Of a stretch of 64,000 nt of DNA, positions 1-50,350 are shown in pieces. The notes under the pieces are model-generated. The model did no database searches and had not been told where the DNA came from. It saw only the letters and a program-made list of their open reading frames with translations. Source of the DNA: Gammaproteobacteria bacterium CG11_big_fil_rev_8_21_14_0_20_46_22 (GTDB lineage Bacteria > Pseudomonadota > Gammaproteobacteria > UBA12402); contig PCWT01000051.1 in NCBI GenBank assembly GCA_002796245.1, positions 71,954 through 135,953 on the forward strand, read 5' to 3'. Every line of letters starts with the position of its first letter. Position 1 is the stretch's first letter. A program made the translations under genes and the position numbers.

Positions 1-726
1 AATCTCTAAACTTAGGCGACCCAAAAAAGCTTCTTCGTCAGCCGTTAAATCATTCGGGCATTCATAAACGGTGCCACACACTGTGTACTTCGCCGTTAAA
101 TCATAAAACTCTCGATTGGGCGTGCTGATTTTAATCGATGGCAGCGCACGACCCGCAATAATCGGCACCGTGTACTCTCCACCGATAATCCACTCTTCAA
201 TCAACACATCATCATGATAACTGCTGGCTTTTTCAATTGCCGCTTCAAGTTCTTCAATGGCGTTCACGCGTGAAACACCAAAACTGGAACCTTCGTGCAC
301 AGGCTTAACGGCCAGTGGAAAATGAAAATCATCCAGTGCGGATAACGTCATACCCTTTTGCCAAAACAAAAAGCGCGGTGTTTTAAAGCCCGCACCTTGC
401 GCGATCAACTTCGTGCGGTATTTATCCATCGCCAACGCGCTGGCGGCGATACCACTACCGGTATACGGAATACCCAAGGTTTCAAGCACAGCTTGAATTT
501 TACCGTCTTCGCCATCGCGGCCGTGCAAAATGACAAACGCACGATCGAATTGACCAGCTTTAAGTTCATCAATACTGTCTTGGCCGACATCAAGCTTATG
601 CGCATCCACGCCAGCATCGAGCAAAGCTTGCAAAACCCCTTGCCCACTGGATAAAGAAATCTCGCGCTCCGTGCTGGTACCGCCCATCAGCACCGCGACT
701 TTGCCAAACGCTTTCACATCACGCAT
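1..726 (-). CDS. ddl: D-alanine--D-alanine ligase (3'-truncated by window edge; N-terminus [25 protein letters not shown]...)
   Basis: Reverse-strand translation from ATG at 724-726 gives the classic Ddl N-terminus ([17 protein letters not shown]). The start overlaps the murC stop (719-721) and the position is the expected dcw order after murC. This frame has no internal ATG start, so it is absent from the ORF track. Confidence 0.8.
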
Positions 727-2152
727 TCACTGTCTCCGCCAAATTTGCTAAGCGCACAGAACATAAACCAATATCACCTGCGCCGGCTAAAATTAACAAA
801 TCGCCCTCGCCGACCACACTCGACAACTCATCAAACAAAGCATCTTTTGAGGTAATACGACGAAGTTTAAAGCCAGCGTTTTTATCCGCAATGACACTGG
901 CCAAGGCATCGCTGTTCGCCCCTTCAATCACAGTTTCACCTGCGGTATAGACATTCAACAACAAAAGCTCATCCACAGTTGATAAGACATCGACAAAATC
1001 ATTAAACAAATCGCGCGTACGGGTAAAACGGTGCGGCTGAAAAGCCATGACCAAACGTTTATCCGGGTATGCACTGCGCGCAGCCGCAATGGTTGCGGCC
1101 AATTCGCGAGGATGGTGCGCGTATTCATCGACCATATCGACCATGCCCCGTCCAAAGTCAAACCGACCCAAGCGCTGGAAACGGCGCCCCACACCGGAAA
1201 ATTGTGTTAATGCTCGCACCATGGCCTCATCACTCACACCCAATTCGGTGCCGACGACAATCGCCGCCAGTGCATTTAAGACATTGTGTCGGCCCGGCAT
1301 GCTAAATTGTACATTTAAAGGTTCACGATCTTTACGATGAACAGTAAAACAGGTCAAACCGTTTTCGTAGTGTATATCTGTCGCATACACATCGGCTTGA
1401 TTGCTTAAGCCATACGTTAACGTTGGGCGCGCCACACGAGCGATCACATCGCGCACACCTTTGTCTTCGATACACAGGATAGCCAGACCATAAAACGGCA
1501 AGTGATGCAAAAAATCTAAAAAGGTCTGTTCAAGCTTTGCCATATCGCCGCCGTAGGTGTCCATATGGTCTTCATCAATATTTGTGACCACCGTCATCAT
1601 CGGTAATAAATGTAAAAATGAGGCGTCGCTTTCGTCAGCTTCTGTCACCATATAACGACTCTGACCCAAACCGGCATTCGCACCCGCACTATTGAGTTTA
1701 CCGCCAATCACAAAGGTCGGATCCATACCGCCTTCAGCTAACACGGTTGCCACCAAACTCGTGGTCGTGGTTTTACCGTGTGTACCGGCAATCGCAATGC
1801 CGTAGCGTGAACGCATGAGTTCAGCCAGCATTTCAGCTCGACGCACGATGGGAATGCGCAAATCACGAGCCGTTTGAATTTCCACATTATCGTGCGCAAT
1901 GGCAGTGGATTGAACCACCACATCCGCACCGTGCACATTCTCGGCTTTATGACCAATATGAATCACGGCACCTTGAGCTGACAAAGCATGCACTGCATCA
2001 CCCGCGCGCTGATCAGAACCTGAAATCTGATAGCCTTCATTTAATAAGACTTGCGCAATACCACACATACCTGAGCCGCCGATACCGACAAAATGAATGC
2101 GTTTGATGCGTTCACAGCCTGGCGCACCCAACAAGGTTTTAAAATGGTTCAT
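719..2152 (-). CDS. murC: UDP-N-acetylmuramate--L-alanine ligase
   Basis: 477 aa; Mur ligase P-loop [13 protein letters not shown]; N-terminus [16 protein letters not shown] typical of MurC; position between murG and ddl. Confidence 0.9.
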
Positions 2153-3213
2153 AGGTAATCCTGTATTGCATTGAGTAGTTGTTCTTCAGTGTTTTTTGGG
2201 CGTATGGCATACGCGCGCGCGGCCATAATATGCAAAGTCTCGCGGTTTTGGCAAAGGGTTTTTAAACGATTTAGCACTACCTCATCATCAAAGCTTTTTT
2301 CGGCCACCAGCTCAGCTGCTTCGGCCTTGACTAAACACTGTGCGTTTTTAGTTTGATGATCATCCACCGCAAAGGGCAAAGGAATTAAAAGGCTCGCAAC
2401 ACCGGTGTGCATGATCTCCGTCACTGTCATGGCGCCCGCTCGGGCGATCACCAAATCGGCCCAGGCAAAGTCTTGATCCAATTGATCGCGGTAGGCACTG
2501 ACCTCAACGTCGAAACTCGCACTAGCATAGGCCGCTTTCACAGCATCAAACGAGGAAGCACCCGATATATGCGCCACCGTAATGGGCGCAGTTCTGGCTA
2601 AGGATTCAAACAAAACAGGAAAACGTTGATTGAATATGCGCGCACCTTGACTGCCACCAAACACCAAAACCCGAATCGGCCCCTGGCGTTTGCCATAGCG
2701 TTCATCTGGTGATGGTAAACGTTTGAATACATCGCGCACCGGATTACCCACGGTCATCACTTTAGACCCAGAAAATGCGCCCTCAAAGCCTAAAAACACT
2801 TTCTTCGCCAATCTGGCCAACAAACGGTTAGTCCAGCCCGCTGCGGCATTTTGCTCATGAAGCACCAAAGGAATACCGAGAGATTTCGCCGCAAGACCAC
2901 CGGCTGCGCTGGCGTAGCCGCCCATCGCAATGACTAGCGTGGGTTTGATGTGGCGCAGTAAGCGGCGCGCTTGAGAAACGGCTTGAAATAATTGCCACAA
3001 GGCATGAAATCGGGCGATGATACCGCCCTGGCGAACCGGGTTTAAATGCAAAAGATGCAGTGGGATATCGGCTTTTGGCACCAAGGTTTTCTCCAGACCA
3101 CGCTCAGCACCCAGCCATTCGACAGCCACACCCTGCTCACGTAAACGTTTCGCCAAAGCAATACCCGGATAAATATGGCCGCCCGTACCGCCACCTGTGA
3201 TCACAACCGTCAT
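2149..3213 (-). CDS. murG: UDP-N-acetylglucosamine--N-acetylmuramyl-(pentapeptide) pyrophosphoryl-undecaprenol N-acetylglucosamine transferase
   Basis: 354 aa; N-terminal [15 protein letters not shown] glycosyltransferase-28 signature; 4-bp ATGA overlap with murC. Confidence 0.9.
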
Positions 3214-3357
3214 CGCGCACCCCTCATTGACTCACGCTATAGTAACGTAAGCGCTTGGGCAGCTCAATGAGGCACCAAAAAAGATCAGCGCTCTTTCGCC
3301 ATGCGGTAACCTTAAGCAACAGGGTACGGCAAGCCTAAGCGCAATACCTTGACAGTG

Positions 3358-3951
3358 TTAAACAGCTGCGCGGTAAGCAGCGTTCTTATGAATCTCCTGC
3401 ATCTCCTGACCGTTCCGACCATCCCTAACTGGCGGTTGCGGGGCTGCTGCCGGCTGAGCAGCGGCTGGAGCATCAACAATATGATTTCTAAGAGCTGAAG
3501 AAATTGTAGGAGCAAAGAGTTTACTCATGGCTAACAGAACCACACCGGCCGTGTTATAGGAAAAGTTTGGTGTACCACCAAACTGCAGCCGATTACTTTC
3601 AAATAAAAGGCTACTACCAGTAATAGAACTTATAATGGAAAATAGAATGATCAACGACCAATTTACAGGATAATCGTACTTTTTCACCTCCGCTGTATTT
3701 TCGGTATTGTGTTTTCTTGCGTACATAACCCGACCAAAAACAATAGCCAGAAGCGCAAGAGAAACCACTGAAGCAGCCAACTCTCCCGCTGAAATGAGAT
3801 CGTTTGATATCCCCTTATTATTGTCGGCGGTCAATTGATCAAAAGCAAAGCCCGCAAGAGTTGACAAGCCATCAGCGACAGCCAAAACCCCAGACCATGT
3901 TAACAGTTTGCTCAGCCCGTCCTTAGTCTCTGGTCGCACAAAAAAATACAT
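3358..3951 (-). CDS. hypothetical multi-pass membrane protein inserted between ftsW and murG
   Basis: 197-aa ORF with about 4 hydrophobic segments; GAGGGAG Shine-Dalgarno 5 nt upstream of the ATG; visibly AT-richer than the flanking dcw genes; no recognisable family. Confidence 0.5.
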   Translation of the reverse strand: MYFFVRPETKDGLSKLLTWSGVLAVADGLSTLAGFAFDQLTADNNKGISNDLISAGELAASVVSLALLAIVFGRVMYARKHNTENTAEVKKYDYPVNWSLIILFSIISSITGSSLLFESNRLQFGGTPNFSYNTAGVVLLAMSKLFAPTISSALRNHIVDAPAAAQPAAAPQPPVRDGRNGQEMQEIHKNAAYRAAV

Positions 3952-4045
3952 AAAACTCCCTCTCTATTTAAACAGACCTAGTGAAATACCAAGCGTAGGC
4001 AAAACGATAAAGCCAGAAGCTTAAGGAAATATTAAGGAAGCAGGA

Positions 4046-5254
4046 TCAACGCTGTTTCGCCATGCGGTGCTCGGCCATCGGGCCTTCTTGAAACGCTTCG
4101 TGATCAATGCGCAAAAGCATGCCCATCACGATACAATCAATGACAATACCGCTGCCACCATAGCTCATCAGTGGCAACGTTAAGCCTTTGGTCGGCAGCA
4201 AACCCGAGGTCACGCCCATATTCACAGCCGCCTGGATCGCCATCCAAATCGCAAAACCGTAAGCCATCAGCGCGCCTTCGTTCAAACCGGCGGCCTGTGC
4301 ACGCCGGCCAATGAGCAGTGAACGCCAAACCAATAGCACGTACAATAACATCGTCGCCACAATGCCAATCAAACCTAGCTCTTCAGCCAAAACCGAAAAC
4401 AAAAAGTCGGTGTGAGCTTCAGGCAAGTAAAAAAGCTTTTGCACACTGCCACCTAAACCCACACCAAAAATGCCTCCGCGACCAAAAGCGATTAATGATT
4501 GTGTGAGCTGGTAGCCGCTACCATAGGCATGCGCCCAAGGATTTAAATACGTGGTTAAACGCTCCAAACGATACGGCGATGAAATCGCAATCACTGCTAA
4601 CGCTGCAACGATTAATGCCGCCAACACCGCAAAAGGCCAAACTCGCATACCGGCAATGAACATCATGCATAACACGGTCACCGCGACCACAGACAATGCA
4701 CCAAAGTCCGGTTCTTTTAACAAGAGCACGGCAATAATGCCTAAGATGAAGATGGGTTTCAGAAAGCCAACCATTGTGGTTTTCAATTCATGATTGCGGC
4801 GAGTTAAATAACCGGCCATAAAAATCACCATCGCAAGTTTCACAAATTCAGATACCTGCAAGTTCACAGGGCCAACACCGACCCAACGTGTACTGCCGTT
4901 GATATGACGGCCCAACCCTGGCACCAACACAACGAGCAATAAAAACAAACCAATGAGCAGCAGCAAACCACTTTTTGCTTGCCAGCGCTCGACCGGGATA
5001 CGCAAAACATACAGGCCCGCACACACACCGAGCACCACATACACCAACTGGCGCATCAAAAAATGAAACGGTGAATGGTACAAACGCTCAGAAATGGCCA
5101 TGCTCGCAGAAGACACCATCACCAATCCAAAGAGCAATAAGGCAACGATCGCGAACACAAAATATTTATCGGTATGAAATTGTGGCAAACCCGGCTTTGG
5201 CTTTGCTGTGCGAAAATCGCGCTTATAAGGCTTTGACAGACTCACAGAAAACAT
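4046..5254 (-). CDS. ftsW: peptidoglycan glycosyltransferase / lipid II flippase FtsW
   Basis: SEDS-family sequence with about 10 TM segments and a C-terminal PTKGLTLPLMSYGGSG motif. The longest ORF (to 5362) overlaps murD by 140 nt, so the start is placed at the internal Met (MFSVSLSK...). Confidence 0.8.
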   Translation of the reverse strand: MFSVSLSKPYKRDFRTAKPKPGLPQFHTDKYFVFAIVALLLFGLVMVSSASMAISERLYHSPFHFLMRQLVYVVLGVCAGLYVLRIPVERWQAKSGLLLLIGLFLLLVVLVPGLGRHINGSTRWVGVGPVNLQVSEFVKLAMVIFMAGYLTRRNHELKTTMVGFLKPIFILGIIAVLLLKEPDFGALSVVAVTVLCMMFIAGMRVWPFAVLAALIVAALAVIAISSPYRLERLTTYLNPWAHAYGSGYQLTQSLIAFGRGGIFGVGLGGSVQKLFYLPEAHTDFLFSVLAEELGLIGIVATMLLYVLLVWRSLLIGRRAQAAGLNEGALMAYGFAIWMAIQAAVNMGVTSGLLPTKGLTLPLMSYGGSGIVIDCIVMGMLLRIDHEAFQEGPMAEHRMAKQR

Positions 5255-6548
5255 CACCCCGGTGTTCGTAATTGTTAAACATATCAAAACTCGCGCAAGC
5301 TGGCGAGAGCAAAACGCTATCGCCACGGACAGCCGCAAGCTCTGCAGCTTGCACAGCTTCATCCATTGAATTCACACGCACCGTTTTCACCACATCTGCA
5401 AACAAGCGCTCAAGCTGATCCGCCACCTCGCCCATGAGAATCACTTCTCGCACATAGCGTTTAACCAGTGGGCGCAAAGGAGAAAAATCCGCACCCTTAC
5501 CCTGCCCGCCTGCGATCAAAATCAGCTTACCCTTCGTTTTTTCACCCAAGGTTTGAATCGCAGCCAAGGTCGCACCCACGTTTGTGCCTTTGGAATCGTT
5601 ATACCAAGTCACACCCTGCATTAAGCGCACCCATTCACAACGATGGCGAATACCGCGAAACTTACGCAGAACATCGAGCATCGTGGCAATATCCAAACCC
5701 AAAGCATCGCCTGCAGCCAGACAAGCCAAGGCGTTGGCCACATGGTGCCTACCCTCTAAAAACAAGCGACTACTCGGCATTAAACGCTGAGTGCCTTTGG
5801 CTAAATAGGTTTTATCGTCATGATCAATTAAACCGAACTCACCTTCTTTGGGCTCATCACAAGCAAAGCTTACAGTCTGCTTGCCAGCAGGCGGCGTGGT
5901 CCACGGGTCTTCTCGATTATACACACAGATCTGTGCATGCTGGTAAATGCGTTGTTTCGCGGCTGCATAATCTGCCAAACTGTCATAGCGATCCATGTGG
6001 TCTTCGCATAAATTCAAAAACACAGCCACACGCAGTTTTAAGCTTTCTATCCGCTCAAGCTGAAAACTGGACAACTCCAAGACATACAAATCGGGCAGCG
6101 TTTCCTGTGCCAAACTGTCCAGCACTGACGTACCGATATTGCCGGCCACAACCACACGCTGACCACACGCTCTGGCCATCTCGCCGATCAAACTCGTGAC
6201 CGTGGTTTTACCGTTTGAACCGGTGATGGCGACCACGGGGCGTTTTGCCACCCGTGCAAATAATTCCAAATCGCCCAATAGGGTTTTACCCTGTTTTTTT
6301 GCCTCAAGCAAAGCGGGCTCTTTCAATGAAACACCCGGGCTGACGATCACCTCATTGGCATCCAGCATGGCATCCAACGAAAAACCGCCTAAAAAAAACG
6401 GCGTATTCGGCGAAAGCGCCTGCACTGTCTCAAGGCCTGGCGGCTGATCACGTGAATCCGTAATGGAAAAACTGTAACCTTGACGAAGGCAATACTTTGC
6501 CGCTGCAAGCCCAGAAACGCCTAAACCAACAATGCAAAAATCGACCAT
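5223..6548 (-). CDS. murD: UDP-N-acetylmuramoylalanine--D-glutamate ligase
   Basis: 441 aa; N-terminal Rossmann-like IVGLGVSGLAAA; Mur ligase P-loop ITGSNGKTTVTS. Confidence 0.9.
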   Translation of the reverse strand: MVDFCIVGLGVSGLAAAKYCLRQGYSFSITDSRDQPPGLETVQALSPNTPFFLGGFSLDAMLDANEVIVSPGVSLKEPALLEAKKQGKTLLGDLELFARVAKRPVVAITGSNGKTTVTSLIGEMARACGQRVVVAGNIGTSVLDSLAQETLPDLYVLELSSFQLERIESLKLRVAVFLNLCEDHMDRYDSLADYAAAKQRIYQHAQICVYNREDPWTTPPAGKQTVSFACDEPKEGEFGLIDHDDKTYLAKGTQRLMPSSRLFLEGRHHVANALACLAAGDALGLDIATMLDVLRKFRGIRHRCEWVRLMQGVTWYNDSKGTNVGATLAAIQTLGEKTKGKLILIAGGQGKGADFSPLRPLVKRYVREVILMGEVADQLERLFADVVKTVRVNSMDEAVQAAELAAVRGDSVLLSPACASFDMFNNYEHRGDVFCESVKAL

Positions 6549-6558
6549 GGTAAAAACT

Positions 6559-7644
6559 TTATCGTAATTTTAATGTGGCCAAACCACACAAGACCAACAC
6601 AAAGGTAATAATCCAAAAACGGACAATCACCTTCGGTTCTGGCCAACCTTTTAATTCAAAATGATGATGGATCGGCGCCATTTTAAAGATACGCTTGCCG
6701 CGCAACTTAAATGATCCAACTTGCAACATAACGGACAGCGTTTCAACCACAAACACACCACCCATGATAAATAACACGATTTCTTGGCGCACAATAATGG
6801 CAATCACACCCAAAGTTGCGCCCAAAGACAGTGAGCCCACATCGCCCATAAACACTTCAGCCGGGTAGCTATTAAACCAGAGAAAACCCAAACCCGCACC
6901 GACTATGGCGCCGATAAACACGACAAGCTCTCCCGCACCGGGCACAAACGGCACATGCAAATATTCGGCAAAATAAAAGTTACCGCTGACATAGGCAAAA
7001 ATACCCAGTGCTGCGACCACCATCACCACCGGCAGAATGGCCAAGCCATCCAAACCGTCGGTTAAGTTCACCGCATTACTGGCGCCCACCAGCACAAAAT
7101 ACGTTAAAACAAAAAAACCACCGACACCCAACACAACCGGCCAGTGCTTTAAAAACGGCACCACCAAACTGGCATCCGCTGAAGCTTTCACAAAAAAGTA
7201 TAAATACGCTGCGACTAAAAGCGCGACCACCGACTGCCAGAAAAACTTCCAACGACTGGCCAAACCTTTGGGATTTTTTAACACCAGCTTTCGAAAATCA
7301 TCGACTCCGCCGATAAACCCATAAGCGAGCATCACCAATAAGCACAAATCCACATAGCGCTCATTGAGATTACCCCAGAGTATTGTCGATAATGTGACGC
7401 CCAGCAAAATCATAATGCCGCCCATGGTGGGTGTGCCGGTTTTGGATAAATGCGACTGCGGGCCATCGTCTCTGACGACTTGCCCCACCTTAAAATGGCG
7501 AAGCTGGCGAATAATGCGCGGCCCAACGAACAAGACAAAAAACAATGCCGTCAGACTTGAGAGAATCATGCGCAGCGTTAAATAATGAATCACTGAGAAA
7601 AAATGACAATAGTGTTCCAACCACTGTGCCAACCAAAGTAACAC
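6559..7644 (-). CDS. mraY: phospho-N-acetylmuramoyl-pentapeptide transferase
   Basis: 361 aa polytopic membrane protein; conserved MraY motifs ([14 protein letters not shown]-terminal HHHFE). Confidence 0.9.
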
Positions 7645-7646
7645 GA

Positions 7647-9083
7647 CTACCCCTCCAATGCTGCGCTCACACAGGCCGCGTCACTAAAGGCATAACGCGC
7701 ATCACCTATGATTTGATAGTTTTCATGGCCTTTGCCGGCAATCAACACAATATCACCTGCTTTTGCCTCATGAAGGGCGAAAGCAATAGCCTCACGGCGG
7801 TCTAACATCACTGACGGCTTCAAACCCGAAAACCCGGCTAGGATATCAGAGACTATCGCCTCTGGCGACTCCCCCCGGGGGTTATCGTTCGTCAAAATCA
7901 CCACATCAGCCTGCTTTTGTGCAATCGCCCCCATCAAGGGACGTTTGCCGGCATCGCGATCCCCCCCGCAACCAAACACGCAGTACAAGCGGCCTTGTGT
8001 AAATTCACGCAAAGCGGTCAATACAGAAGATAGCGCTTCTGGTGTGTGCGCATAGTCAACCACTGCCAAGGGTTTACCTTCGACTTGAAACACTTGCATA
8101 CGACCCAAAGGCGGTTTTAAAGATGGAATGAGTTCGCTGAGTGTTTCGCCTTCGAAACCGAGGGACACCAAGGCAGTGATCACCGACAATAGATTGTAAA
8201 GATTAAAACGGCCTATGAGCAGGGTGCGTGATGCAAAGCGCTGAGTGCAGCCTTCAAACTCAAAGCGCTGCGGCAGCGTTGCCAAGTTTTGTAGACTGAG
8301 TTTCGCGTCGGCTTCACGATCCAAACCATATCGCAAAAGTCTAGGCCCGTTCTTTGGCCAAGCCTCTATCCATTCGTGCCCGATCTCATCATCGACATTG
8401 ATCACGGCAAGCTGCATGGGGCAATCAAAAAATGAGCGCTTAGCGTTAGCATAGGCCTGCATGGTGCCGTGGAAATCCAAATGATCGCGGCTTAAATTCG
8501 TAAAAATGCCTACAGCAAATTGCACACCGCGCACACGGCCTTGCACCAAACCGTGCGATGACACTTCCATCGCCACGTAATCCACACCGGCATCCACATA
8601 CTCGGCGAGCTTAGCCTGAAGCTCAAACACGCCCAGTGTCGTGAGTGGTGACTCGATTAAATCCGGCCAAATGCCGTTGCCCGCCGTACCCAACACCGCC
8701 GATTTCTTCCCAAGGTGGGTCAATGCTTGTGCCAGCAAGTGACACACCGAGGTTTTACCGTTCGTGCCTGTGACACCGAGCACTTTAAGTTTTTGACTAG
8801 GGTCATCATACAAACGACACGCAATATCAGCCGCCTGCTCAATTAAACCCGGACATTCAATGATCGCAGATTGTTTTTCCAAAGCCTGCTTGGGGTCAGC
8901 CATCACACACAACGCGCCGCGATTTATCGCATGCGAGCTGTAACGTTTAGCATTCTCTGCATTCGGCGTTAAGCAAATAAACACATCGCCCGGCTCAACC
9001 AAACGGCAATCCGTTTTGATTTGCGACAATGCCACATCGTGATCGTGTTCAAACACTTGTTGAAACAGTTGGCTGAGTTTCAC
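7647..9083 (-). CDS. murE: UDP-N-acetylmuramoyl-L-alanyl-D-glutamate--2,6-diaminopimelate ligase
   Basis: 478 aa; [10 protein letters not shown]-loop, [30 protein letters not shown] and AGKGHENYQ are MurE-type motifs rather than MurF-type; directly abuts mraY. Confidence 0.85.
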
Positions 9084-9269
9084 AGTAAAATCCGCTTAGG
9101 TTCACAGCGTTTAGCCGTGCGCAATTTCGCGAGGGATTTGCGTTGCCGGGGCTTGTGGAGGCAGGATGCCGGAACAGAGCGGCCAGGATGGCGAAAAGCG
9201 TCCCCGGCAAGGCAAAGCCGGAGGGAAATATTCAGCACGGCGAAAAAATCAAACGTATCTTTCATAAGT

Positions 9270-10805
9270 TTAAACTCTAAAATGCCGCAATCGCACACCG
9301 CTTAAAAATAAGGCCAGACCATAAATGAATAGCGCAGCAAACACACATTCTGTTAAATGTTCAGCTTGTGCAGGCCAATGCCAAACTAACCATTGCGACA
9401 TCGCAGGTGTTAAGAAAAACAAAGCGGCGATCATGATCGCATTGGCCACAAACAATTGAAGAAAAAATTTCGCCCAACCGGCTTGCGGGGTGTAAATGCC
9501 GCGTTTTAGTGCGAACACCAACAAGCAACCGGCGTTGATAAAGCCTGAGATCGAGGTCGCCAGCGCAAGACCCGCGTGCGCCAGCGGGCCGATCAGCGCA
9601 AAATTTAGCCCCATATTGCACAGCATCGAAAAGGCCGCGACTTTCACCGGAAATTTAATGTTTTGCCGTGCATAAAACGCGGAAGCCAACACCTTGACCA
9701 GCATAAACGCCTGCACGCCCACGGCAAAGGCCATCAAGCTTCGCGTGGACATTAGTACATCGTGGTGCGTGAACTTACCGTGACCGAACAAAGTCGCGAT
9801 CATGGGACCCGCCAACATTAGCAAGCCAATTGAGGATGGCACACCAATGAGCAGCAGCAGGCGCAAGGCCCAATCAAACGTTTGATTGTAGCGCTCTTGA
9901 TCTTGACTAGCCGCACCGCGCGACAAATACGGCAAAATCACAGTGGCAATGCCCACGCCAAATACGCCCAAGGGAAAGTTCATCAAACGTTCAGAAAAAT
10001 ACAACCACGTCACGCTGCCTTTTGGCAAGAACGAAGCAAAGACAGTATCAATTAACACGCTTAACTGAGCCACCGACACGCCAAACAAAGCCGGCACCAT
10101 GAGCTTTAATACGCGCCTCACATCGGGATCATGCAAACGCGGGTTGGGCATCACCAGCAAACGCTTTTGCCACAAAAACGGCAGCTGAAAGAAAAACTGA
10201 GCAATACCGGCTGCCAACAAACCCCAGGCTAATGCTTCGACCGGTATCGCAAAATGTGGCCCCAAATACACGGCGGCTAAAATCAAACACACATTAAACA
10301 ACACTGGCGTAAACGAAGGAATACCATAGTTGCCATACGTATTAAGCACCGCACCAGACAGGGCGACCAGGGAAATAAATAATAAATACGGCGCGGTAAC
10401 ACGCAACATGTGCGTGGACAGCTCATAGCGCACACCGTCCCAATGGAAGCCTGGCGCAAATAATGAAATCAACAGGGGTGCGCAGAAAAAGAAAATAATC
10501 ACTGTGATCACCAGCGCGACCGTGAGCACACCACTCATATGCGAGATAAAGGTTTTAACGTCGTCCAAGCTGGTTTTGGTTTGCTTTTCAGCCAGCACCG
10601 GCACAAAAGCTTGAGCAAAGGCGCCTTCGGCGAACAAACGGCGCATAAAATTGGGCAAGCGAAAGGCGATAATAAAGGCATCAAACGCAGGGCCCGCGCC
10701 AAAGGCTTGCGCCCAAATCATGTCTCGCACAAAACCCAAAATGCGCGAGAGCATGGTATTGCCTGAGACCAAAGATGTGGAGCGAAGCAAGCCGCGTTTT
10801 TTCAC
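9270..10805 (-). CDS. murJ: lipid II flippase MurJ (MviN)
   Basis: 511 aa, about 14 TM segments; N-terminus SGNTMLSRILGFVRDMIWAQAFGAG is the MurJ signature. Confidence 0.85.
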   Translation of the reverse strand: MKKRGLLRSTSLVSGNTMLSRILGFVRDMIWAQAFGAGPAFDAFIIAFRLPNFMRRLFAEGAFAQAFVPVLAEKQTKTSLDDVKTFISHMSGVLTVALVITVIIFFFCAPLLISLFAPGFHWDGVRYELSTHMLRVTAPYLLFISLVALSGAVLNTYGNYGIPSFTPVLFNVCLILAAVYLGPHFAIPVEALAWGLLAAGIAQFFFQLPFLWQKRLLVMPNPRLHDPDVRRVLKLMVPALFGVSVAQLSVLIDTVFASFLPKGSVTWLYFSERLMNFPLGVFGVGIATVILPYLSRGAASQDQERYNQTFDWALRLLLLIGVPSSIGLLMLAGPMIATLFGHGKFTHHDVLMSTRSLMAFAVGVQAFMLVKVLASAFYARQNIKFPVKVAAFSMLCNMGLNFALIGPLAHAGLALATSISGFINAGCLLVFALKRGIYTPQAGWAKFFLQLFVANAIMIAALFFLTPAMSQWLVWHWPAQAEHLTECVFAALFIYGLALFLSGVRLRHFRV

Positions 10806-31743: not shown

Positions 31744-33273
31744 TTAGAAGTAGATACCTAACTGTGCAGTGATCGCATTCGAGCTCTTACCAAGCGCAGA
31801 CGGATCGTAGGCGGTTTGAATCGTGCCGGCTTCGTTGTGTGTGGCCGAACTGCTCTTACCGTAGTTAGTGTCATGACGGAATTCAAACGTTAACAAGGTG
31901 TAACGTCGAATCGCCAACTGCAAAGCAGCCAAATAACGTGCTTCAGGAATATTAAAGCCCAACGCTTGGTATGAACGACCGTAGCTCAAACCAAAAGTCA
32001 CCGGCATATTTAACATGTGGAAGTTGTAATCGCCTTCGACTGTGTACGCACTTGGCTTCGCACCACGACCATTATAAGAAATATCATTCGCAGAGAAGCG
32101 GCGCAAGGCACTTAAGTACTCAGCTAAAACGGTGAAATTCCCATAACCCAGGTTCGTGTGCACATCAGCCGCGTGCACGACGTGATCAATATTCTCAGCC
32201 GTTGAACTTTGATTAAAGCCTGTAAAGGCAGCTGAAGAACCCGTGTCTTGCATGCCATCAACATCGGCCATATTGCGTACCGCACTCACACCCACGTTCG
32301 CCGTAAACTTGCCGACTTTTCCATTGTAGCCCACATCCACACCACCATTATTGATGCGCGGGTCAGAACTTGTCGAGGCCGCACCGCGATACACAAAGGC
32401 TTCGGCGTAAGGACGGTTGTCATGTTGTGAACGGTAACCCACTTCCAGCGCACGCGCTTTGGTTTTACCCAAATATTTGGTGAGCGGATCGCTGATCATG
32501 ATACTTGAATAGCGGCCAAATGGCACATACAACTGACCCAAGGAGCCAAAAATCGGCGACTTCATAAAGTTACCAATCGTCACGTAACCTTGATTTAAGT
32601 AAATGCGTGAATTATCTAAACCACGATCGGTATCCACAGCCGCAGAGTTATCATACGAAAACTCCATCAAACCCGAGACCCACGGCGTTACGACAGCTTG
32701 CGCCATTAAGTCCGCACCCGTCAAATCGATATCGCTGTTGGATTTACCTTGGTACGTGTTTGAGTACTGAGCGATACCCACAACGTCACCACTTAACACC
32801 AAACGCGGCAAGGATGGCCATTCACCCATTTCTTTTTTGTAGTACTCCATCGCCTTCTTCGTACGGTTAAGTAACTCAATATTTTCATTGATACTTGGCG
32901 CATTAATAATAAAGCTAGAACCGTCGTAGTGAGCCGGCACACCTGTCGCTGGCGCCAATACCACAGAGTTACCAAAATGAACATAACCCGGCGTGTTCAC
33001 CACATAATGCTTCTGAGCACCCTTAAGGTGACCGTATTCTGTTTTCACATCTGTGGTGTTATGTCGAGCACGGTTGACGTGTTGCCGATGTTTCAGCTGA
33101 GCTTTTAAAGTACCCACTTGTTGTTGCAAGGCAGCCATTTGCTTTTGCATGGCCTGCATTTCTTGGGTCACTTCTTTTAGGGCGGCCGCATCCTTGCTTG
33201 AGCCATCGGCCGCCAGCACCGCTGTACTCACGGTGGCTAAACTAATAGCAGCAACTAAGGCCTTGATTCTCAT
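31744..33273 (-). CDS. putative outer-membrane beta-barrel porin with N-terminal coiled-coil segment
   Basis: 509 aa; signal peptide; a Q/A-rich helical stretch, then alternating-hydrophobic beta-strand pattern rich in Y/G/N/S; C-terminal ...QLGIYF (terminal Phe). Confidence 0.65.
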   Translation of the reverse strand: MRIKALVAAISLATVSTAVLAADGSSKDAAALKEVTQEMQAMQKQMAALQQQVGTLKAQLKHRQHVNRARHNTTDVKTEYGHLKGAQKHYVVNTPGYVHFGNSVVLAPATGVPAHYDGSSFIINAPSINENIELLNRTKKAMEYYKKEMGEWPSLPRLVLSGDVVGIAQYSNTYQGKSNSDIDLTGADLMAQAVVTPWVSGLMEFSYDNSAAVDTDRGLDNSRIYLNQGYVTIGNFMKSPIFGSLGQLYVPFGRYSSIMISDPLTKYLGKTKARALEVGYRSQHDNRPYAEAFVYRGAASTSSDPRINNGGVDVGYNGKVGKFTANVGVSAVRNMADVDGMQDTGSSAAFTGFNQSSTAENIDHVVHAADVHTNLGYGNFTVLAEYLSALRRFSANDISYNGRGAKPSAYTVEGDYNFHMLNMPVTFGLSYGRSYQALGFNIPEARYLAALQLAIRRYTLLTFEFRHDTNYGKSSSATHNEAGTIQTAYDPSALGKSSNAITAQLGIYF

Positions 33274-37990: not shown

Positions 37991-38100
37991 CCCGAGCACG
38001 CCAAACCGTAAGATAGTTTGCGGGCACAGCCTAAAAAGCAACATGACCTTGCAACTTCAATCGCATGATGCACATCCAAAATAATAAAACAACGAGGTAT

Positions 38101-39231
38101 ATGAGCATGACAAAGCACCGTGGGACGGGCAAAAAACGCAGACAAATAGACGCAAATAAAGCTGAACAAAGGTACAAGGCCCTCACAGCGGATCAAGACC
38201 GTCTAGTGCAAGAAAAACGGCGAGAACAGCTCGGGCAAAGAGCCCTCGCGCTTCGAAGCCAAGCGCCTCCACCGGCCGCGACAGGTGTCCAAGCTAATAC
38301 AGAAAGCCCTTTCGAGCTCCATAGAACCATCGAGCACCTTAAAAAGCGCCTCGACGATTCACGAGCCACACAAACTCGCGAGGCAGACGAGCACCTAGTG
38401 AGGTCTAACAGACAGCTGTCTGAAATCTCAGCGCTTAAAAGAGAGCTCACCGCTAAAAATCAACGCATCAGCACGCTTGAAGCTCAGTTAGCACAAGTAG
38501 AACGCAATTTAAACAGCGCGAACGAAAGCAATGCTCAGGCTGCGCAAGCTCAGACTGAGCAGGCCCAGAGCACCATAGAAAAACTAGAACAGGGATTAAC
38601 TGAACTCCGAGCAGAAAACTCTCAAGCACTACACAAAATTAGACGCCTGGAGCAGGCATACAGCCTCAGCCAACACGAGCACAAGGAAGCCACAGCAGCC
38701 CTGCAACAAACACACGCAACTGAGCTCGCCATCACCGCCGCTCAAAACCAGGCGTGGATTCTCCAAGTCGTCACATTACAAAGTCAGCACACCTCTTTAA
38801 AAAGACGTTTTTCAGAGCAAAAAAAGCTTTTAAACAATGCGCACCCAACACATCATGAGCTGCATAAAACAAAGCCAAATAACTCTGCTTCACCTGCTGA
38901 TCGACCACCACCGGCCAACTCAAACAGCGAAAACTATGACGGCCTCATTTTAACACTGATTCAGCAGGTCGATGAACTCACCAAGAGCAAGAAAAATGAA
39001 CAGCAAAAAAATGAAGAACTTAAAAGGAGGCTAAGTACACTTGAAGCACGACTTGCGCTCTATGAAACCACACCACCCCCAGAGTTCTCGCCATTTACAG
39101 GCATGTGTTTTTTTAACGAGAGACGCGGCTCTCTTGCCTCAGATAGATCAGATACACCGGATGCACAAAACCACACAACAGGTTCCCCCATAGGCAGCAG
39201 ACCTTCGCCAAGCTCAACCGGTTCAGACTGA
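38101..39231 (+). CDS. Gln/Ala-rich coiled-coil hypothetical protein (eukaryotic-like; candidate effector)
   Basis: About 376 aa from the ATG preceded by GAGG; long heptad/Q-rich helical region and Ser/Pro-rich C-terminus; no enzymatic motif. Confidence 0.5.
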   Translation: MSMTKHRGTGKKRRQIDANKAEQRYKALTADQDRLVQEKRREQLGQRALALRSQAPPPAATGVQANTESPFELHRTIEHLKKRLDDSRATQTREADEHLVRSNRQLSEISALKRELTAKNQRISTLEAQLAQVERNLNSANESNAQAAQAQTEQAQSTIEKLEQGLTELRAENSQALHKIRRLEQAYSLSQHEHKEATAALQQTHATELAITAAQNQAWILQVVTLQSQHTSLKRRFSEQKKLLNNAHPTHHELHKTKPNNSASPADRPPPANSNSENYDGLILTLIQQVDELTKSKKNEQQKNEELKRRLSTLEARLALYETTPPPEFSPFTGMCFFNERRGSLASDRSDTPDAQNHTTGSPIGSRPSPSSTGSD

Positions 39232-45910: not shown

Positions 45911-45975
45911 CCCATCAAACCTCAATTGAGGCTAGACATTTTTAGCCTAGTTTGTTAGAGTGCGCACCGATAACA

Positions 45976-46005
45976 AATAATAATAATAATAACAATAATA
46001 AAATA
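45976..46005 (+). repeat. (AAT)5-AAC-(AAT)2 trinucleotide microsatellite immediately 5' of the ATG at 46006
   Basis: AATAATAATAATAATAACAATAATAAAATAATG read directly; it encodes the poly-Asn run if the longer ORF (start 45952) is used. Confidence 0.7.
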
Positions 46006-46383
46006 ATGTTCTTTACCCATGATACTTGTGCTATCAACGATCAGCTTATTGCCATCGAAACCTTGATAGAACAGCCCATTTTCACATCGCTTAAAACGCT
46101 AGAAGCACTTGCCCAAAAAGACAGTGCGTTTAAAGAAAAATTCAAGCTCGAAAAAGCGTATTTGCTCAGGCAAATGGCGGCACAAGCAAGGCTCAGAAGT
46201 CTTCCAGGGCATAGTGCGATCACAACAACCTTAAAAAGTGTTCACAAAGAAATGCTTGATGGCGACCAGCTGGCAGAGGCGCTCAGTGGACTAAAAACAT
46301 ACGACTCAGAAGAAGGCACCACCCCTTGGCAACAAAGCGACGAGGCGATAACGCTACAGCAAGAGTCGACGCACTCAATGTGA
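46006..46383 (+). CDS. hypothetical protein (helical, acidic)
   Basis: 125 aa from MFFTHD. The alternative upstream start at 45952 would add MLECAPITNNNNNNNNKI. Confidence 0.4.
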   Translation: MFFTHDTCAINDQLIAIETLIEQPIFTSLKTLEALAQKDSAFKEKFKLEKAYLLRQMAAQARLRSLPGHSAITTTLKSVHKEMLDGDQLAEALSGLKTYDSEEGTTPWQQSDEAITLQQESTHSM

Positions 46384-46461: not shown

Positions 46462-48258
46462 ATGACAAACCCCTCCACGAATGCTATTAACGCAGTAAAA
46501 AGCAATATTGAAAAGCTCCTAAACGAATTTCAGACTTTAAGCAAACAAATTGAGCTACAAGACGGCATAGAAGGTTATATAGCTCGGATAGAGGCTATCA
46601 CCGAAGAATATAAAAGCTTCAAAACAGACATCCTAACTATACGACTTAGAGCAGGCTTACTAGACAAACACTCAACCAAACTCTCAGAAGATTACAGGCA
46701 ACTTTCCGCTATCGAGAGTGCCGTCTTGGCAGTAAATTGCGAACTAAAACTCAAACTGTACAGCCTATCAATACAAATGATACTAGACAAACTTAACGAT
46801 TTAAAAGACGAAGACAAAGCTGAGCTAGAAGCGTTACTGACTATCGTCAAGACGACAAGCACAAGTGATTTAATGAACGCTTACAAAAATAATGCAGGCA
46901 TAGAAAAACTTAATGCGTTTACAGCGAGACTCAGGCGGGCTAAAGACAAGGCTGTCGATTATTTTTTGGCAAAAAACCATGAAATCACCATTAAAACAGC
47001 CAATCTTCGAAGGCGCTTTGAAAACCCAAATGAAAATATCAACGCCAGCTTAGCACTGCATAAAGAACTGACCGCCTTAGAACAAAATAGACTGGGCCTA
47101 AGGCTATGGAGAGACGATAACCGACACAGAGGAAGTAACTTAGTAAGACAAGCCTCAATCACAAGAGCATCGCTAATAGTCTTTACATTGAAAAATCAGG
47201 AGAGCATTATTAACTCCGTAAACAATACGCTTCAAAAAATTCTTCTTAGCCTTATTCACTCACACCTCAAAAACACGGCTAACAGAAAAAGCATTCCCGA
47301 ATCACAGAGAGCTTGTATTTATAATGAGCTAAGTGAGTTATTCATCAGATTAAAATCAAAAGACACGCCTCCGGCGATACAACGCCATAAGAACACTACC
47401 GACATGTATAATGAAATCAACGACTGCCGTCGAATGCAAGAAATCATAATACAGGCATCCCTGCTTGAGCCAGACACTTTAGATATTTACAAAGACCTGC
47501 TTAACGACTTGCTAAAAGCCATGCAAGACATACTCACTGAGATTTACAAAAATACAGCTAGCGAAACCCTGGTTAATGCATTTAACCTCATCGCCTACTG
47601 GGCACGCGAACTATACACTTTATATTTTGAAATAAGGCATCAAGAAGCCCCCGCCACCTTAACAACAGCACCCAGCGATCGCCCTCAATCCCCGTGCTCT
47701 TTTGAAAGCAGTCTTGAAAACAGCAACGATGACGACGACATTGCCCAAGATACACAGCAGCAGCAAGCACAACAACCTCCACCGCCGCAAGTGGCGCGAG
47801 CAACAGTCACCACTCAACGCAGTATACTTGCAGAGCTTAGCGCTGTTGCAACACAACAAGCACGCCTAATTCAAGCCACGCAAGCATCTACCGTCGCAGT
47901 AGCAAATGCTAATACCGCAAACAACAGACCCATTCTCACCGCTTTATTTCCAAGGCAAGATAATTTAAGGCCTCCTACCGGAAGAAACTCAACTGAAATA
48001 CCGCGTCATTACACCTTCCCAAAAGGTGAAGCCGCTAGGGTTGCAAGGGTTCTGTTCAGCCAGTCTCACGCTCAAGCCCAGCACATGCCGAGGATTGGCT
48101 GGGCAAGACCCGCCAGTGACTTAGAGGGAACGGAAGAAAATCCGACAAGGCGACAAAGACTGGATAACCCAGAAACAACACCAGAACAAGCAGTGCCAGA
48201 AACGCCACCAAGCGCTGCAGCACCCCAATCGCCTCAAACACCGAGGCGGGGTTTGTAA
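46462..48258 (+). CDS. large coiled-coil hypothetical protein with Gln/Pro-rich C-terminal low-complexity tail (eukaryotic-like; candidate effector)
   Basis: 598 aa; long alpha-helical, heptad-like N-terminal 400 aa; QQQQAQQPPPPQ and a P/T/S-rich tail. Confidence 0.55.
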   Translation: MTNPSTNAINAVKSNIEKLLNEFQTLSKQIELQDGIEGYIARIEAITEEYKSFKTDILTIRLRAGLLDKHSTKLSEDYRQLSAIESAVLAVNCELKLKLYSLSIQMILDKLNDLKDEDKAELEALLTIVKTTSTSDLMNAYKNNAGIEKLNAFTARLRRAKDKAVDYFLAKNHEITIKTANLRRRFENPNENINASLALHKELTALEQNRLGLRLWRDDNRHRGSNLVRQASITRASLIVFTLKNQESIINSVNNTLQKILLSLIHSHLKNTANRKSIPESQRACIYNELSELFIRLKSKDTPPAIQRHKNTTDMYNEINDCRRMQEIIIQASLLEPDTLDIYKDLLNDLLKAMQDILTEIYKNTASETLVNAFNLIAYWARELYTLYFEIRHQEAPATLTTAPSDRPQSPCSFESSLENSNDDDDIAQDTQQQQAQQPPPPQVARATVTTQRSILAELSAVATQQARLIQATQASTVAVANANTANNRPILTALFPRQDNLRPPTGRNSTEIPRHYTFPKGEAARVARVLFSQSHAQAQHMPRIGWARPASDLEGTEENPTRRQRLDNPETTPEQAVPETPPSAAAPQSPQTPRRGL

Positions 48259-48642: not shown

Positions 48643-48718
<76 letters not shown>

Positions 48719-48745
48719 GTAAGCGATCGCAGAAACCAACCTAGG

Positions 48746-48821
48746 GTCCCCTTCGTCTAGAGGCCTAGGACACCGCCCTTTCACGGCGGCAACAGGGGTT
48801 CGAATCCCCTAGGGGACGCCA
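48746..48821 (+). tRNA. tRNA-Glu (anticodon UUC)
   Basis: 76 nt, GTCCCCTTCGTCTAGAGGCCTAGGACACCGCCCTTTCACGGCGGCAACAGGGGTTCGAATCCCCTAGGGGACGCCA; near-identical to enterobacterial tRNA-Glu. Confidence 0.95.
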
Positions 48822-48839
48822 TTTAAAAACGCAAGCCTA

Positions 48840-49649
48840 TTAAGACAAATGCAAATTTAATAAGTAAAAAATAATCTCTAGGCAAATCAAAAAGACGATA
48901 ATGACCTCTAGGCGATGAGAATGTTTATTTTCCGAATAACTGTTACACATCATAAAAATCTCGCTTAAGGTATCAAGCTGGTGATTTACCACTTTTGCGC
49001 GCTCCACGATATCCATATACCGTTTTACCATGACAAAATATTCTTCCAAGGAAGGGTGTTGCCAAAAAAACTTCGGCATATACAAAAAACTACTATTTAG
49101 ATTAATGCGGCTTTTAAACATCAAGATATCACCAATAATTTGGCGAATTTTGCGTTGAGACAAGCCCAGCTCACCCGAGCCACTCAAGGTTGCCACGATC
49201 GGATTATATTTTTCGATCACGGCCTCAAGATCATTCTCATAAGCCTTAAGTTTAGTAGACAAAGAAATACCATACGCAAGACTGAGCTTCAAATCATCGT
49301 CATCGCTTTCCATCGTAATACACTCCACATTGAAATAATCATGCGGATATATCCTGGTTTTATCGGAAAATCGACAGCTAAAACCATCAAACACAGGGGC
49401 TTTAAACCAGCTTGTCGTAGCGGCTTGTAAAATAGCCAGAATAGGTTTCAATTCATAACGCTTAAACCCCCAAGTGATCAGCGTTCCATTAAAAAACACA
49501 TAAAGCGAACTTTTTCGATCTTTAAAAATGACCTCAAGCACTCGATCGTGGCGATCGATCATGATGGAATACTTCTCCTTCAAAGCTTTTTCAACCGACC
49601 CTAAATCAAATTTTTCCGCAAGAGCATAGCTTAAACATTCCATAATCAA
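48840..49649 (-). CDS. RMD1/Sif2-family (DUF155) protein with C-terminal TM helix
   Basis: 269 aa; N-terminal CLSYALAEKFDL and FFNGTLITWGF resemble DUF155 conserved blocks; hydrophobic C-terminal tail; 4-bp overlap with the FGase gene. Confidence 0.5.
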   Translation of the reverse strand: MIMECLSYALAEKFDLGSVEKALKEKYSIMIDRHDRVLEVIFKDRKSSLYVFFNGTLITWGFKRYELKPILAILQAATTSWFKAPVFDGFSCRFSDKTRIYPHDYFNVECITMESDDDDLKLSLAYGISLSTKLKAYENDLEAVIEKYNPIVATLSGSGELGLSQRKIRQIIGDILMFKSRINLNSSFLYMPKFFWQHPSLEEYFVMVKRYMDIVERAKVVNHQLDTLSEIFMMCNSYSENKHSHRLEVIIVFLICLEIIFYLLNLHLS

Positions 49650-50350
49650 TATTCCTCCATCGTGCTAACCAGGCTCTGCTTAAGCAAGCTGATAATCTTT
49701 GTTTGACAGCGCCCATCTCGCGAAAAATGCCGCTGGTTCACCTCTAGCTCAACACCCATATAGTTTGGATTGAGCTGGCTTTTTCGGATTGCGGTGGGCA
49801 AGCCATCGCTCGTGCCTAAATAGGGATAATTCATACGAACCTTTAAATCTGATCCTAAAACTAAAAGGTTCGCGCGCCATCGCTCGCAAAAAGCTTTTTC
49901 ACCAATCGACCTTGGATCATATAAAAACCCCACATCGTTATCGCGAATCTGACCACCCAAAACCGGTGTAAAGGTGTGAGAAGCAATATGCAAAGGGTTC
50001 TTTAGCCTTACAACCTCAGATAAAACCGTATCACGATAAGGTTGATAGACCTCACTAACAAGCCTAAGTTTTTTTTCAGGCGATAAGCTGCTAGAAAACT
50101 CGGAAAAAACGGCCTTGTGATTCAAAGAGCGATTGAGATCAATGAGCAAACGGCTGTATTGTGCCGCGATAGAAAAATCAGAAAGTGGCTTGAGCGCCGT
50201 ATATACAGCCAAAGCGCCAATATCATAACCGCGATGCGTGGACAAAACACGCTGCGCTTTTTCAAAGCAAGCCGAATAAGGGGCAGGAATCGCCCTGCTC
50301 GCATGTTCACAAGTAAGCAGCAATGAAAGTCTAGACATAAAACAATTCAT
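49646..50350 (-). CDS. N-formylglutamate amidohydrolase (FGase) family zinc hydrolase
   Basis: 234 aa; LLLTCEHAS N-terminal motif typical of the FGase family. Confidence 0.7.
   Translation of the reverse strand: MNCFMSRLSLLLTCEHASRAIPAPYSACFEKAQRVLSTHRGYDIGALAVYTALKPLSDFSIAAQYSRLLIDLNRSLNHKAVFSEFSSSLSPEKKLRLVSEVYQPYRDTVLSEVVRLKNPLHIASHTFTPVLGGQIRDNDVGFLYDPRSIGEKAFCERWRANLLVLGSDLKVRMNYPYLGTSDGLPTAIRKSQLNPNYMGVELEVNQRHFSRDGRCQTKIISLLKQSLVSTMEEY

Follow-up and report, generated by a model that had tools for sequence, protein, structure and literature searches.

An orphan gene for a predicted inner-membrane protein, bordered by a 25-nt direct repeat, between ftsW and murG of a gammaproteobacterial dcw cluster

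The ftsW-murG junction and its direct repeat

The window (the whole 64-kb stretch of DNA analysed here) carries, on the (-) strand of its first 11 kb, the genes murJ, murE, mraY, murD, ftsW, an orphan open reading frame (ORF), murG and murC. The orphan ORF begins 94 nt after the ftsW stop codon and ends 144 nt before the murG start, within an ftsW-murG gap of 832 nt (Table 1), and the ftsW product scores 423.6 bits against TIGR02614 (cutoff 337.5). The arrangement proposed in a first-pass annotation made from the letters, a 197-aa frame between ftsW and murG with all three genes co-oriented, was borne out, all of them being read from the (-) strand.

The surrounding dcw cluster (window 719-10805) is itself non-canonical: murJ lies directly upstream of murE (TIGR01085, 500 bits), which is followed immediately by mraY, no murF was found between murE and mraY or elsewhere in the 64-kb window, and the mraZ/rsmH/ftsL/ftsI block is absent upstream. 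L001 has a convergent bioY, not ftsZ, after ftsA. L095, a contig of the sister species described below, also has murE next to mraY, as apparently does the relative L009, where a partial upstream gene aligns to the window murE region.

Table 1. Features of the ftsW-murG junction, in window coordinates
Feature	Position	Strand	Description
ftsW	4046..5254	(-)	402-aa form of the public annotations, open frame to 5362; Pfam FTSW_RODA_SPOVE, 2e-106
Repeat copy A	4044..4068	(-)	ACCGCATGGCGAAACAGCGTTGATC; final 7 ftsW codons (HRMAKQR), stop codon and 2 nt
Inserted segment	3308..4043	(-)	736 bp, or 761 bp including one repeat copy; missing from the sister species
Insert leader	3952..4043	(-)	92 nt; carries GAGAGGGAG; no sigma-70-like promoter predicted; fold z = 0.34, not unusually stable
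Orphan ORF	3358..3951	(-)	ATG start; 197 aa/codons
Hydrophobic helix 1 (predicted)	3841..3906	(-)	residues 16-37, includes D27; Kyte-Doolittle; helical in low-confidence AF2 model
Hydrophobic helix 2 (predicted)	3724..3798	(-)	residues 52-76, includes E57; followed by a basic loop, residues 76-95
Hydrophobic helix 3 (predicted)	3598..3666	(-)	residues 96-118; Kyte-Doolittle
Hydrophobic helix 4 (predicted)	3487..3552	(-)	residues 134-155, includes K144; Kyte-Doolittle
C-terminal tail	3361..3474	(-)	Pro/Ala-rich DAPAAAQPAAAPQPPV (residues 160-175), then a short predicted helix (181-196; AF2, low confidence)
Insert 3' tail	3308..3357	(-)	50 nt; no attC-like or terminator structure; fold z = 0.09
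Repeat copy B	3283..3307	(-)	ACCGCATGGCGAAAGAGCGCTGATC; non-coding remnant of the ftsW end, with an in-frame TAA before it; weak terminator-like hairpin (3301..3286) together with the T-run that follows
Ancestral ftsW-murG spacer	3214..3282	(-)	69 nt; holds the murG Shine-Dalgarno (GAGGGG)
murG	2149..3213	(-)	Pfam Glyco_transf_28, 1.1e-41 (N-terminal), and Glyco_tran_28_C, 1.8e-34 (C-terminal)

The extra DNA is delimited by two copies of a 25-nt sequence, identical at 23 of 25 positions and 761 nt apart, and the upstream one, copy A, provides the functional end of an ftsW that stays intact. Within the 64 kb this repeat is found at the two insert borders alone (0/100 shuffles), and homology stops abruptly at the edges of the 25-mer, the sequence beyond being indistinguishable from shuffles (P = 0.88 and 0.48). 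A tandem duplication of the 3' part of ftsW or the 5' part of murG was rejected, there being no similarity to FtsW, murG or the window, and none beyond the 25-mer; so was the idea that the 25-mer is a regulatory motif or a repeat scattered over the window, given its presence solely at the two borders. Subtraction of one 25-nt copy and the 736 nt leaves an ftsW-murG spacer of 69 nt, near the 53 nt seen in L009. Two bases shared by copies A and B differ from the sister-species copy, and each copy has in addition one private change: that of copy A is synonymous for FtsW (CGT vs CGC), and that of copy B would be Gln to Glu, which fits a non-coding relic. This pattern, at only 2 + 2 sites, appears to favour duplication of a host target rather than an att/attP sequence brought in by an element.

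Other parts of the window also hold genes of no recognised family. A giant orphan ORF on the (+) strand (19404-30104; 3566 aa, GC 0.41, GC3 0.36) has no Pfam match and is flanked on either side by copies of a REP/MITE-like palindromic element, and further ORFs of 143-674 aa without a Pfam family (13563-14198, 14266-14805, 14802-16274, 38065-39231, 45952-46383, 46462-48258 and 54749-56773), three of which also lack an NCBIfam family, are interspersed among housekeeping genes. The latter ORFs have lower GC3 and low coding scores, and neither they nor any other orphan gene of the window shows flanking direct repeats comparable to those at the ftsW-murG junction. Lineage-specific genes of this compositional class, to which the dcw ORF also belongs, seem to be abundant in the genome. 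A (-)-strand gene at 31744-33273 encodes a siderophore porin of the LbtU family (NF033652, E = 6e-90), which was first described in Legionella, and the named sequences most similar to Ffh, at 66-68% identity, belong to MAGs that bear the labels Legionellaceae or Legionellales and Methylophaga. Finally, the region 48643-53744 carries tRNA-Ala(GGC) and tRNA-Glu(UUC), followed on the opposite strand by a lower-GC cluster with DUF155, N-formylglutamate amidohydrolase-like and GCS2 glutamate-cysteine ligase-like genes, a RimK-like ATP-grasp gene with an RLAN domain and a C39-like peptidase gene, which may represent a peptide-ligation or modification cassette.

Reading frame, composition and predicted product

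The stop-free run that contains the orphan ORF spans 201 codons and 81% of the insert, a length matched in 0.03% of insert shuffles (P = 3e-4), and the good ribosome-binding site proposed in the first pass is indeed present as a purine-rich, Shine-Dalgarno-like GAGAGGGAG (containing GAGGGAG) at 3964..3956, 4 nt 5' of the ATG. Coding potential was scored with a 3-periodic Markov model trained on the genes of the 64-kb window. The annotated frame scores slightly negative at -0.04 bits per codon and tops all six by at least 0.23 bits per codon; as the remaining five frames of the insert score far lower (-0.27 to -0.53), it is clearly the coding one. Its score is also at the bottom of the 43 scored window genes (mean 0.16, sd 0.08; z about -2.5), as expected of a recent arrival. 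GC by codon position is 0.53/0.44/0.39, and both GC3 (0.39; z about -1.6) and synonymous-codon scores (z about -1.4) group the ORF with other orphan genes of the window, not with the housekeeping genes.

Bulk composition tells a different story from codon usage. The GC content is 0.455 for the ORF and 0.448 for the insert, as compared to 0.49-0.52 for the flanking dcw genes and a window mean of 0.468. The first-pass description of a markedly AT-richer gene is overstated: the ORF lies 4-6 GC points below its neighbours, but within the window the insert is at the 29th percentile of same-size stretches by GC, and 35-36% of such stretches deviate as much or more in di-/trinucleotide signature. The proposed GC and codon check gave a similarly divided answer, with ordinary bulk GC, di- and trinucleotides but atypical GC3, codon and Markov coding scores. 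Because the composition of the insert is ordinary for the window, AT-richness provides no evidence of foreign origin here, and we rejected GC, di- and trinucleotide signatures as proof thereof and relied on comparative evidence instead. So host-like a signature fits an intragenomic origin or a young gene as well as it fits transfer.

The gene is a strict orphan. A word-indexed search of 5.8 billion clusters matched the protein only to its identical copy, an exhaustive phmmer (HMMER) scan of 1.84 billion cluster representatives recovered only the protein itself, and the sole database match is the identical PIQ44261.1/PIR10812.1, a single-member cluster from MAGs whose names begin with Gammaproteobacteria bacterium CG11_big_fil_rev_8_21_14_0. 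In agreement with the first-pass view of a protein of no recognisable family, nothing above noise was found in NCBIfam, PHROGs, PADLOC or PDB sequences, and the top Pfam match is a partial one to the integral membrane protein family DUF2269 (PF10027) at 14.4 bits and E = 0.039, against a gathering threshold of 28 bits. Searches of Pfam, NCBIfam and the PDB returned no similarity to known division, peptidoglycan-synthesis or immunity families, and the protein resembles neither FtsW nor any window gene, MurG included. No homologue was detected in other organisms or in the sample holding the sister species and L009, and queries with the protein and with the 761-nt DNA against viral contigs, metagenome contigs, plasmids and phages yielded no match and no source. 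The literature search returned no mention of a gene between ftsW and murG, nor of the assembly accession.

Kyte-Doolittle analysis delineates four hydrophobic segments, in line with the approximately four transmembrane helices counted previously, and lysines plus arginines number 11 in the segments predicted to be cytoplasmic as against 2 in the pair of predicted periplasmic loops. This bias suggests that the protein spans the inner membrane with four helices in an N-in/C-in topology, leaving the C-terminal tail in the cytoplasm. An AF2 model computed without an alignment is all-helical with a pLDDT of 47.5, too poor for fold comparison. An internal duplication of two-helix halves was considered and found not to be significant, and glutamates at positions -12 and -15 from the C-terminus are not diagnostic of a Dot/Icm-type translocation signal, which was looked for in view of the Legionella-type LbtU porin and the number of orphan genes. 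With its four helices, the colicin A immunity protein is about as large as the orphan protein, and immunity proteins to pore-forming colicins, as well as the division inhibitors SidA and DidA, are small inner-membrane proteins that are often orphans. The resemblance of the orphan protein to these families is one of size and topology only: it gives no match to them at E up to 1, and its gene has no adjacent toxin gene and no SOS or phage context.

Several of these properties would also suit an insert that is junk, either a decayed mobile-element remnant or a filler-DNA repair product, in which the 197-codon frame is nonfunctional even if passively transcribed: the lack of a homologue among about 15 billion proteins, the slightly negative coding score, the lowest in the window, the poor confidence of the single-sequence AF2 model (pLDDT 47), and the clonality of the available copies, which carry no record of selection. 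We consider this unlikely in view of the length of the stop-free run relative to shuffles, the clear lead of the ORF frame over the other five, the correct spacing of the Shine-Dalgarno-like sequence, and the four regularly spaced hydrophobic helices with their positive-inside bias, all in a frame that is still intact while the flanking repeats have gained 2/25 differences. An intact gene for a membrane protein is the reading we retain in what follows.

Occupied and empty sites in the population and its relatives

We compared the junction with a reference set of 80 Gamma- and Betaproteobacterial loci retrieved by a MurG profile. The ftsW stop and the murG start are at most 90 nt apart in 77 of them, with outliers at 154 and 343 nt, and none of the 80 has a gene at this position, the largest gap (343 nt) being devoid of a credible one; the premise of the first-pass annotation that the two genes are almost always adjacent is thereby upheld. 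A survey of fragmented dcw clusters likewise gives 'ftsW, murG' as a normally retained sub-cluster (PMC9395523).

In the population from which the window derives, the insert is identical in 10 of the 10 contigs examined, which come from independent assemblies and samples of one near-clonal population and hence argue against an assembly artefact; those compared with the window are at least 99.97% identical to it. The orphan gene is fixed in the sampled population. An exact pattern for the unoccupied junction had no match in JGI metagenome contigs, and all ten population contigs are occupied. In one short contig of the same population (L097 173-1015; ENA ERZ27293396), the C-terminal part of FtsW is joined to an unrelated N-terminus of 43 residues (P0126), which probably reflects either chimeric assembly or a rearrangement, and the orphan ORF follows this fused ftsW at the usual 94 nt.

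An empty site is found in a sister species, represented by contigs L094 and L095 (run SRR14597287), which were reached from the 90% clusters of MurG and FtsW through their variant members and are 87.6% and 86.4% identical to the window at the nucleotide level (the latter over murE-ftsW). In the single contig L095, ftsW ends with one copy of the repeat, ACCGTATGGCCAAACAGCGCTGATC, that runs straight into TTTTTGATGCCTCATTGAGCTG...CTTACGTTACTATAG; L095 5140-5209 aligns with window 3307-3237 at 86%, featuring a single 25-mer with the spacer directly after it, and the 69-nt spacer of the window is homologous to L095 5165-5209 and L094 ~116-147. Two further, more distant relatives also have ftsW followed by murG and no gene between: in L009, at about 70% nucleotide identity, the called genes are separated by 53 nt with no ORF, and in L013 by about 180 nt. 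As the sister species, L009 and L013 are all unoccupied, parsimony places the insertion in the window lineage after the split from the sister. The first-pass annotation had reasoned that the same gene across the family would speak against a gene wedged into the cluster; its absence from these three relatives, the empty site and the 25-nt target duplication instead bear the wedged-in gene out, and by sequence comparison the inserted-gene reading of the orphan ORF is supported. Its description as foreign, in the sense of a distant donor, finds no support in the bulk composition, which looks host-like.

The sister spacer is not untouched. It is occupied by a REP/MITE-like palindromic element with the core GTAGCCTGGGTTGAGCGAAGCGATAACCCGG ... 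CCGGATTATCGC ... CTCAATCCAGGCTAC (L095 5211-5254 and L094 1-115), which split the assembly into two contigs overlapping by 23 nt and which recurs on the (-) strand of the window at ~19119-19146 and ~30250-30330, as one partial and one fuller copy. More distantly, among relatives with 51-53% MurG identity, the gene upstream of murG is a divergent 429-aa gene rather than ftsW in L010/L011, and a DUF2807 gene in L012, so that the ftsW-murG link has been broken repeatedly in this clade though it is intact in 80/80 reference loci. The uptake of an unrelated element by the sister spacer and the broken link in these relatives together point to a permissive junction rather than a functional address.

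The protein might be a partner of the lipid II machinery or modulate it, its gene being kept in place for stoichiometric co-expression with FtsW and MurG. It might then act as a membrane regulator that binds FtsW or MurG, or confer immunity, as an orphan, to a toxin aimed at the membrane or at lipid II. Such a function would be in keeping with a gene that is fixed in the population, that sits exactly inside the sub-cluster usually surviving dcw fragmentation (PMC9395523), and that encodes a predicted inner-membrane protein whose flexible Pro/Ala-rich stretch and terminal helix could dock a cytoplasmic partner. Such a role nevertheless appears improbable: the protein resembles no known division, peptidoglycan or immunity protein in sequence or structure, the closest relatives divide without the gene, the sister spacer accepted an unrelated non-coding element, and distant relatives broke the ftsW-murG link altogether. 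Membership in the core dcw cluster or divisome receives no support from family matches or from a position that is conserved neither in relatives nor in the 80 loci, and absence of the gene from close relatives makes a core division role unlikely. Least credible is an ancestral gene lost from the sister and, independently, from other relatives by recombination between the 25-nt repeats, which would yield exactly the single-copy structure of L095 but requires the gene to have been lost precisely and independently no fewer than three times (sister, L009, L013) and is at odds with the lack of a homologue in any other organism, the sample with the sister and L009 included, with a closer match between copies A and B than of either to the sister copy, and with a coding score atypical for the genome.

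Mode of insertion and presumed place in the dcw transcript

The preferred reading, a recent insertion, raises the question of the element involved. No transposase domain is present in the insert, the 197-aa membrane protein being its sole substantial ORF, and no integrase (tyrosine or serine recombinase) or transposase was found in it or among window ORFs of at least 120 aa. Terminal inverted repeats are also lacking, with just an 8-nt CCTTAAGC/GCTTAAGG match at unequal offsets. The 25-nt direct repeat at both borders does provide the target-site duplication expected of an insertion sequence (IS) or transposon, though at a length far above the 2-14 bp that IS elements typically duplicate; as at att sites, the repeated bases are those of the 3' terminus of a target gene, ftsW, that remains intact. 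Integron attC sites are imperfect palindromes of R''/L''-L'/R' organisation with GTTRRRY, located downstream of the cassette ORF. A GTTTAAC at the stop codon of the orphan ORF has no partner GTTRRRY, and the 3' fold is like that of shuffles. Xer-dependent modules are flanked by 28-bp dif-like XerC/XerD sites. No match to E. coli dif within 3 mismatches was found across the window, where the dif of the host itself may differ, and the 25-mer, examined as a flanking XerC/XerD site, is ftsW coding sequence. The features of a MITE or REP are those of the sister-spacer element, which is short, non-coding, palindromic and multi-copy; the insert is 736 bp long, coding and present in the window as a single copy. 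An integron cassette, a Xer/dif module, an IS element, a MITE and a prophage moron were each rejected for want of their defining features, and no standard element accounts for a 25-bp duplication that comes with neither a recombinase nor terminal repeats. A plausible explanation is an illegitimate insertion, a rare event that survived because its long staggered duplication regenerated the C-terminus of FtsW.

Known systems share some of these features. The minimal mobile elements of Neisseria are single-gene cassettes between conserved flanking genes that are exchanged by homologous recombination without target duplication. The insert is similar in that a single gene without mobility function lies between conserved neighbours and in that the content of the site varies (the ORF here, the REP/MITE-like element in the sister, nothing in L009), but differs in its 25-nt target duplication, which marks an illegitimate or site-specific insertion. 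Phage morons are extra single genes between conserved adjacent genes in prophages, usually with their own promoter and terminator; the orphan gene recalls them as a co-oriented gene of atypical codon usage between genes that are adjacent in relatives, but it resides in an essential chromosomal operon, with no promoter or strong terminator predicted and no PHROG match. Integrative islands and their integrase-less remnants provide a parallel for direct repeats that equal the 3' end of an intact target gene, whereas the insert measures only 736 bp, has no integrase within it or in the window, and is bordered by repeats that carry host-lineage bases. IS1634 and IS1549 are insertion sequences making long target duplications of tens of base pairs, as seen here, but the insert lacks a transposase and terminal inverted repeats and its cargo is a non-transposase membrane protein. 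Lastly, the dcw cluster of Neisseria contains lineage-specific extra ORFs (dca and others). Like that cluster and the fragmented dcw clusters surveyed elsewhere (PMC9395523), the present locus tolerates non-division genes or breaks inside dcw; unlike the fragmented clusters, it is the normally retained ftsW, murG pair that is interrupted, and in one uncultivated species only.

A consensus scan of the (-) strand between ftsW and murG detected no promoter-like site, and only weak hairpins are present in this interval, at 3584-3564 inside the orphan ORF and at 3301-3286 (copy B with a T-run). As the essential genes murG, murC, ddl, ftsQ and ftsA are downstream of the orphan ORF in the same orientation, transcription is expected to cross it, and most probably the gene is read through with the dcw operon, in keeping with the co-transcription presumed in the first pass from co-orientation.

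Taken together, these data lead us to a model in which a 736-bp segment would have entered ftsW within its final 25 bp once the lineage had separated from the nearest sampled sister species, with duplication of the 25 target bases such that copy A completes ftsW and copy B persists as a relic before the old 69-nt spacer. The segment would have brought one intact gene with its own ribosome-binding site and without a detectable promoter, strong terminator or mobility function, and the dcw mRNA would read through it to reach murG, murC, ddl, ftsQ and ftsA. Translation would yield the predicted 197-aa N-in/C-in four-helix inner-membrane protein with its Pro/Ala-rich cytoplasmic tail, a putative lineage-specific accessory (passenger) membrane protein tied to dcw expression rather than a core divisome or peptidoglycan-synthesis component. 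We assign this full account, from recent insertion through dcw read-through to an accessory passenger protein, a probability of roughly 0.7.

Orphan gene islets in conserved operons are a known phenomenon; what is unusual here is the 25-nt target duplication and the position inside ftsW-murG. A more far-reaching proposal is a long shot: the protein would be a new kind of modulator, or an immunity factor, that acts from the inner membrane on the FtsW/MurG lipid II machinery, and it would have arrived through an undescribed, recombinase-independent mode of single-gene insertion that duplicates ~25 bp. If true, an insertion of this type could strike an essential gene at its end and leave it intact, and any action of the protein on FtsW or MurG would offer a new handle on septal peptidoglycan synthesis. 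The locus captures gene gain within one of the most conserved gene pairs of bacteria, with occupied site, empty site and duplication all visible, and allows the event to be dated after a split at about 87% nucleotide identity. The ftsW-murG junction tolerates 761 extra bases and an additional membrane-protein gene in what is presumed to be the same transcript, and, with an independent insertion in the sister species and a broken link in distant relatives, it constitutes a soft spot of the dcw cluster in this lineage.
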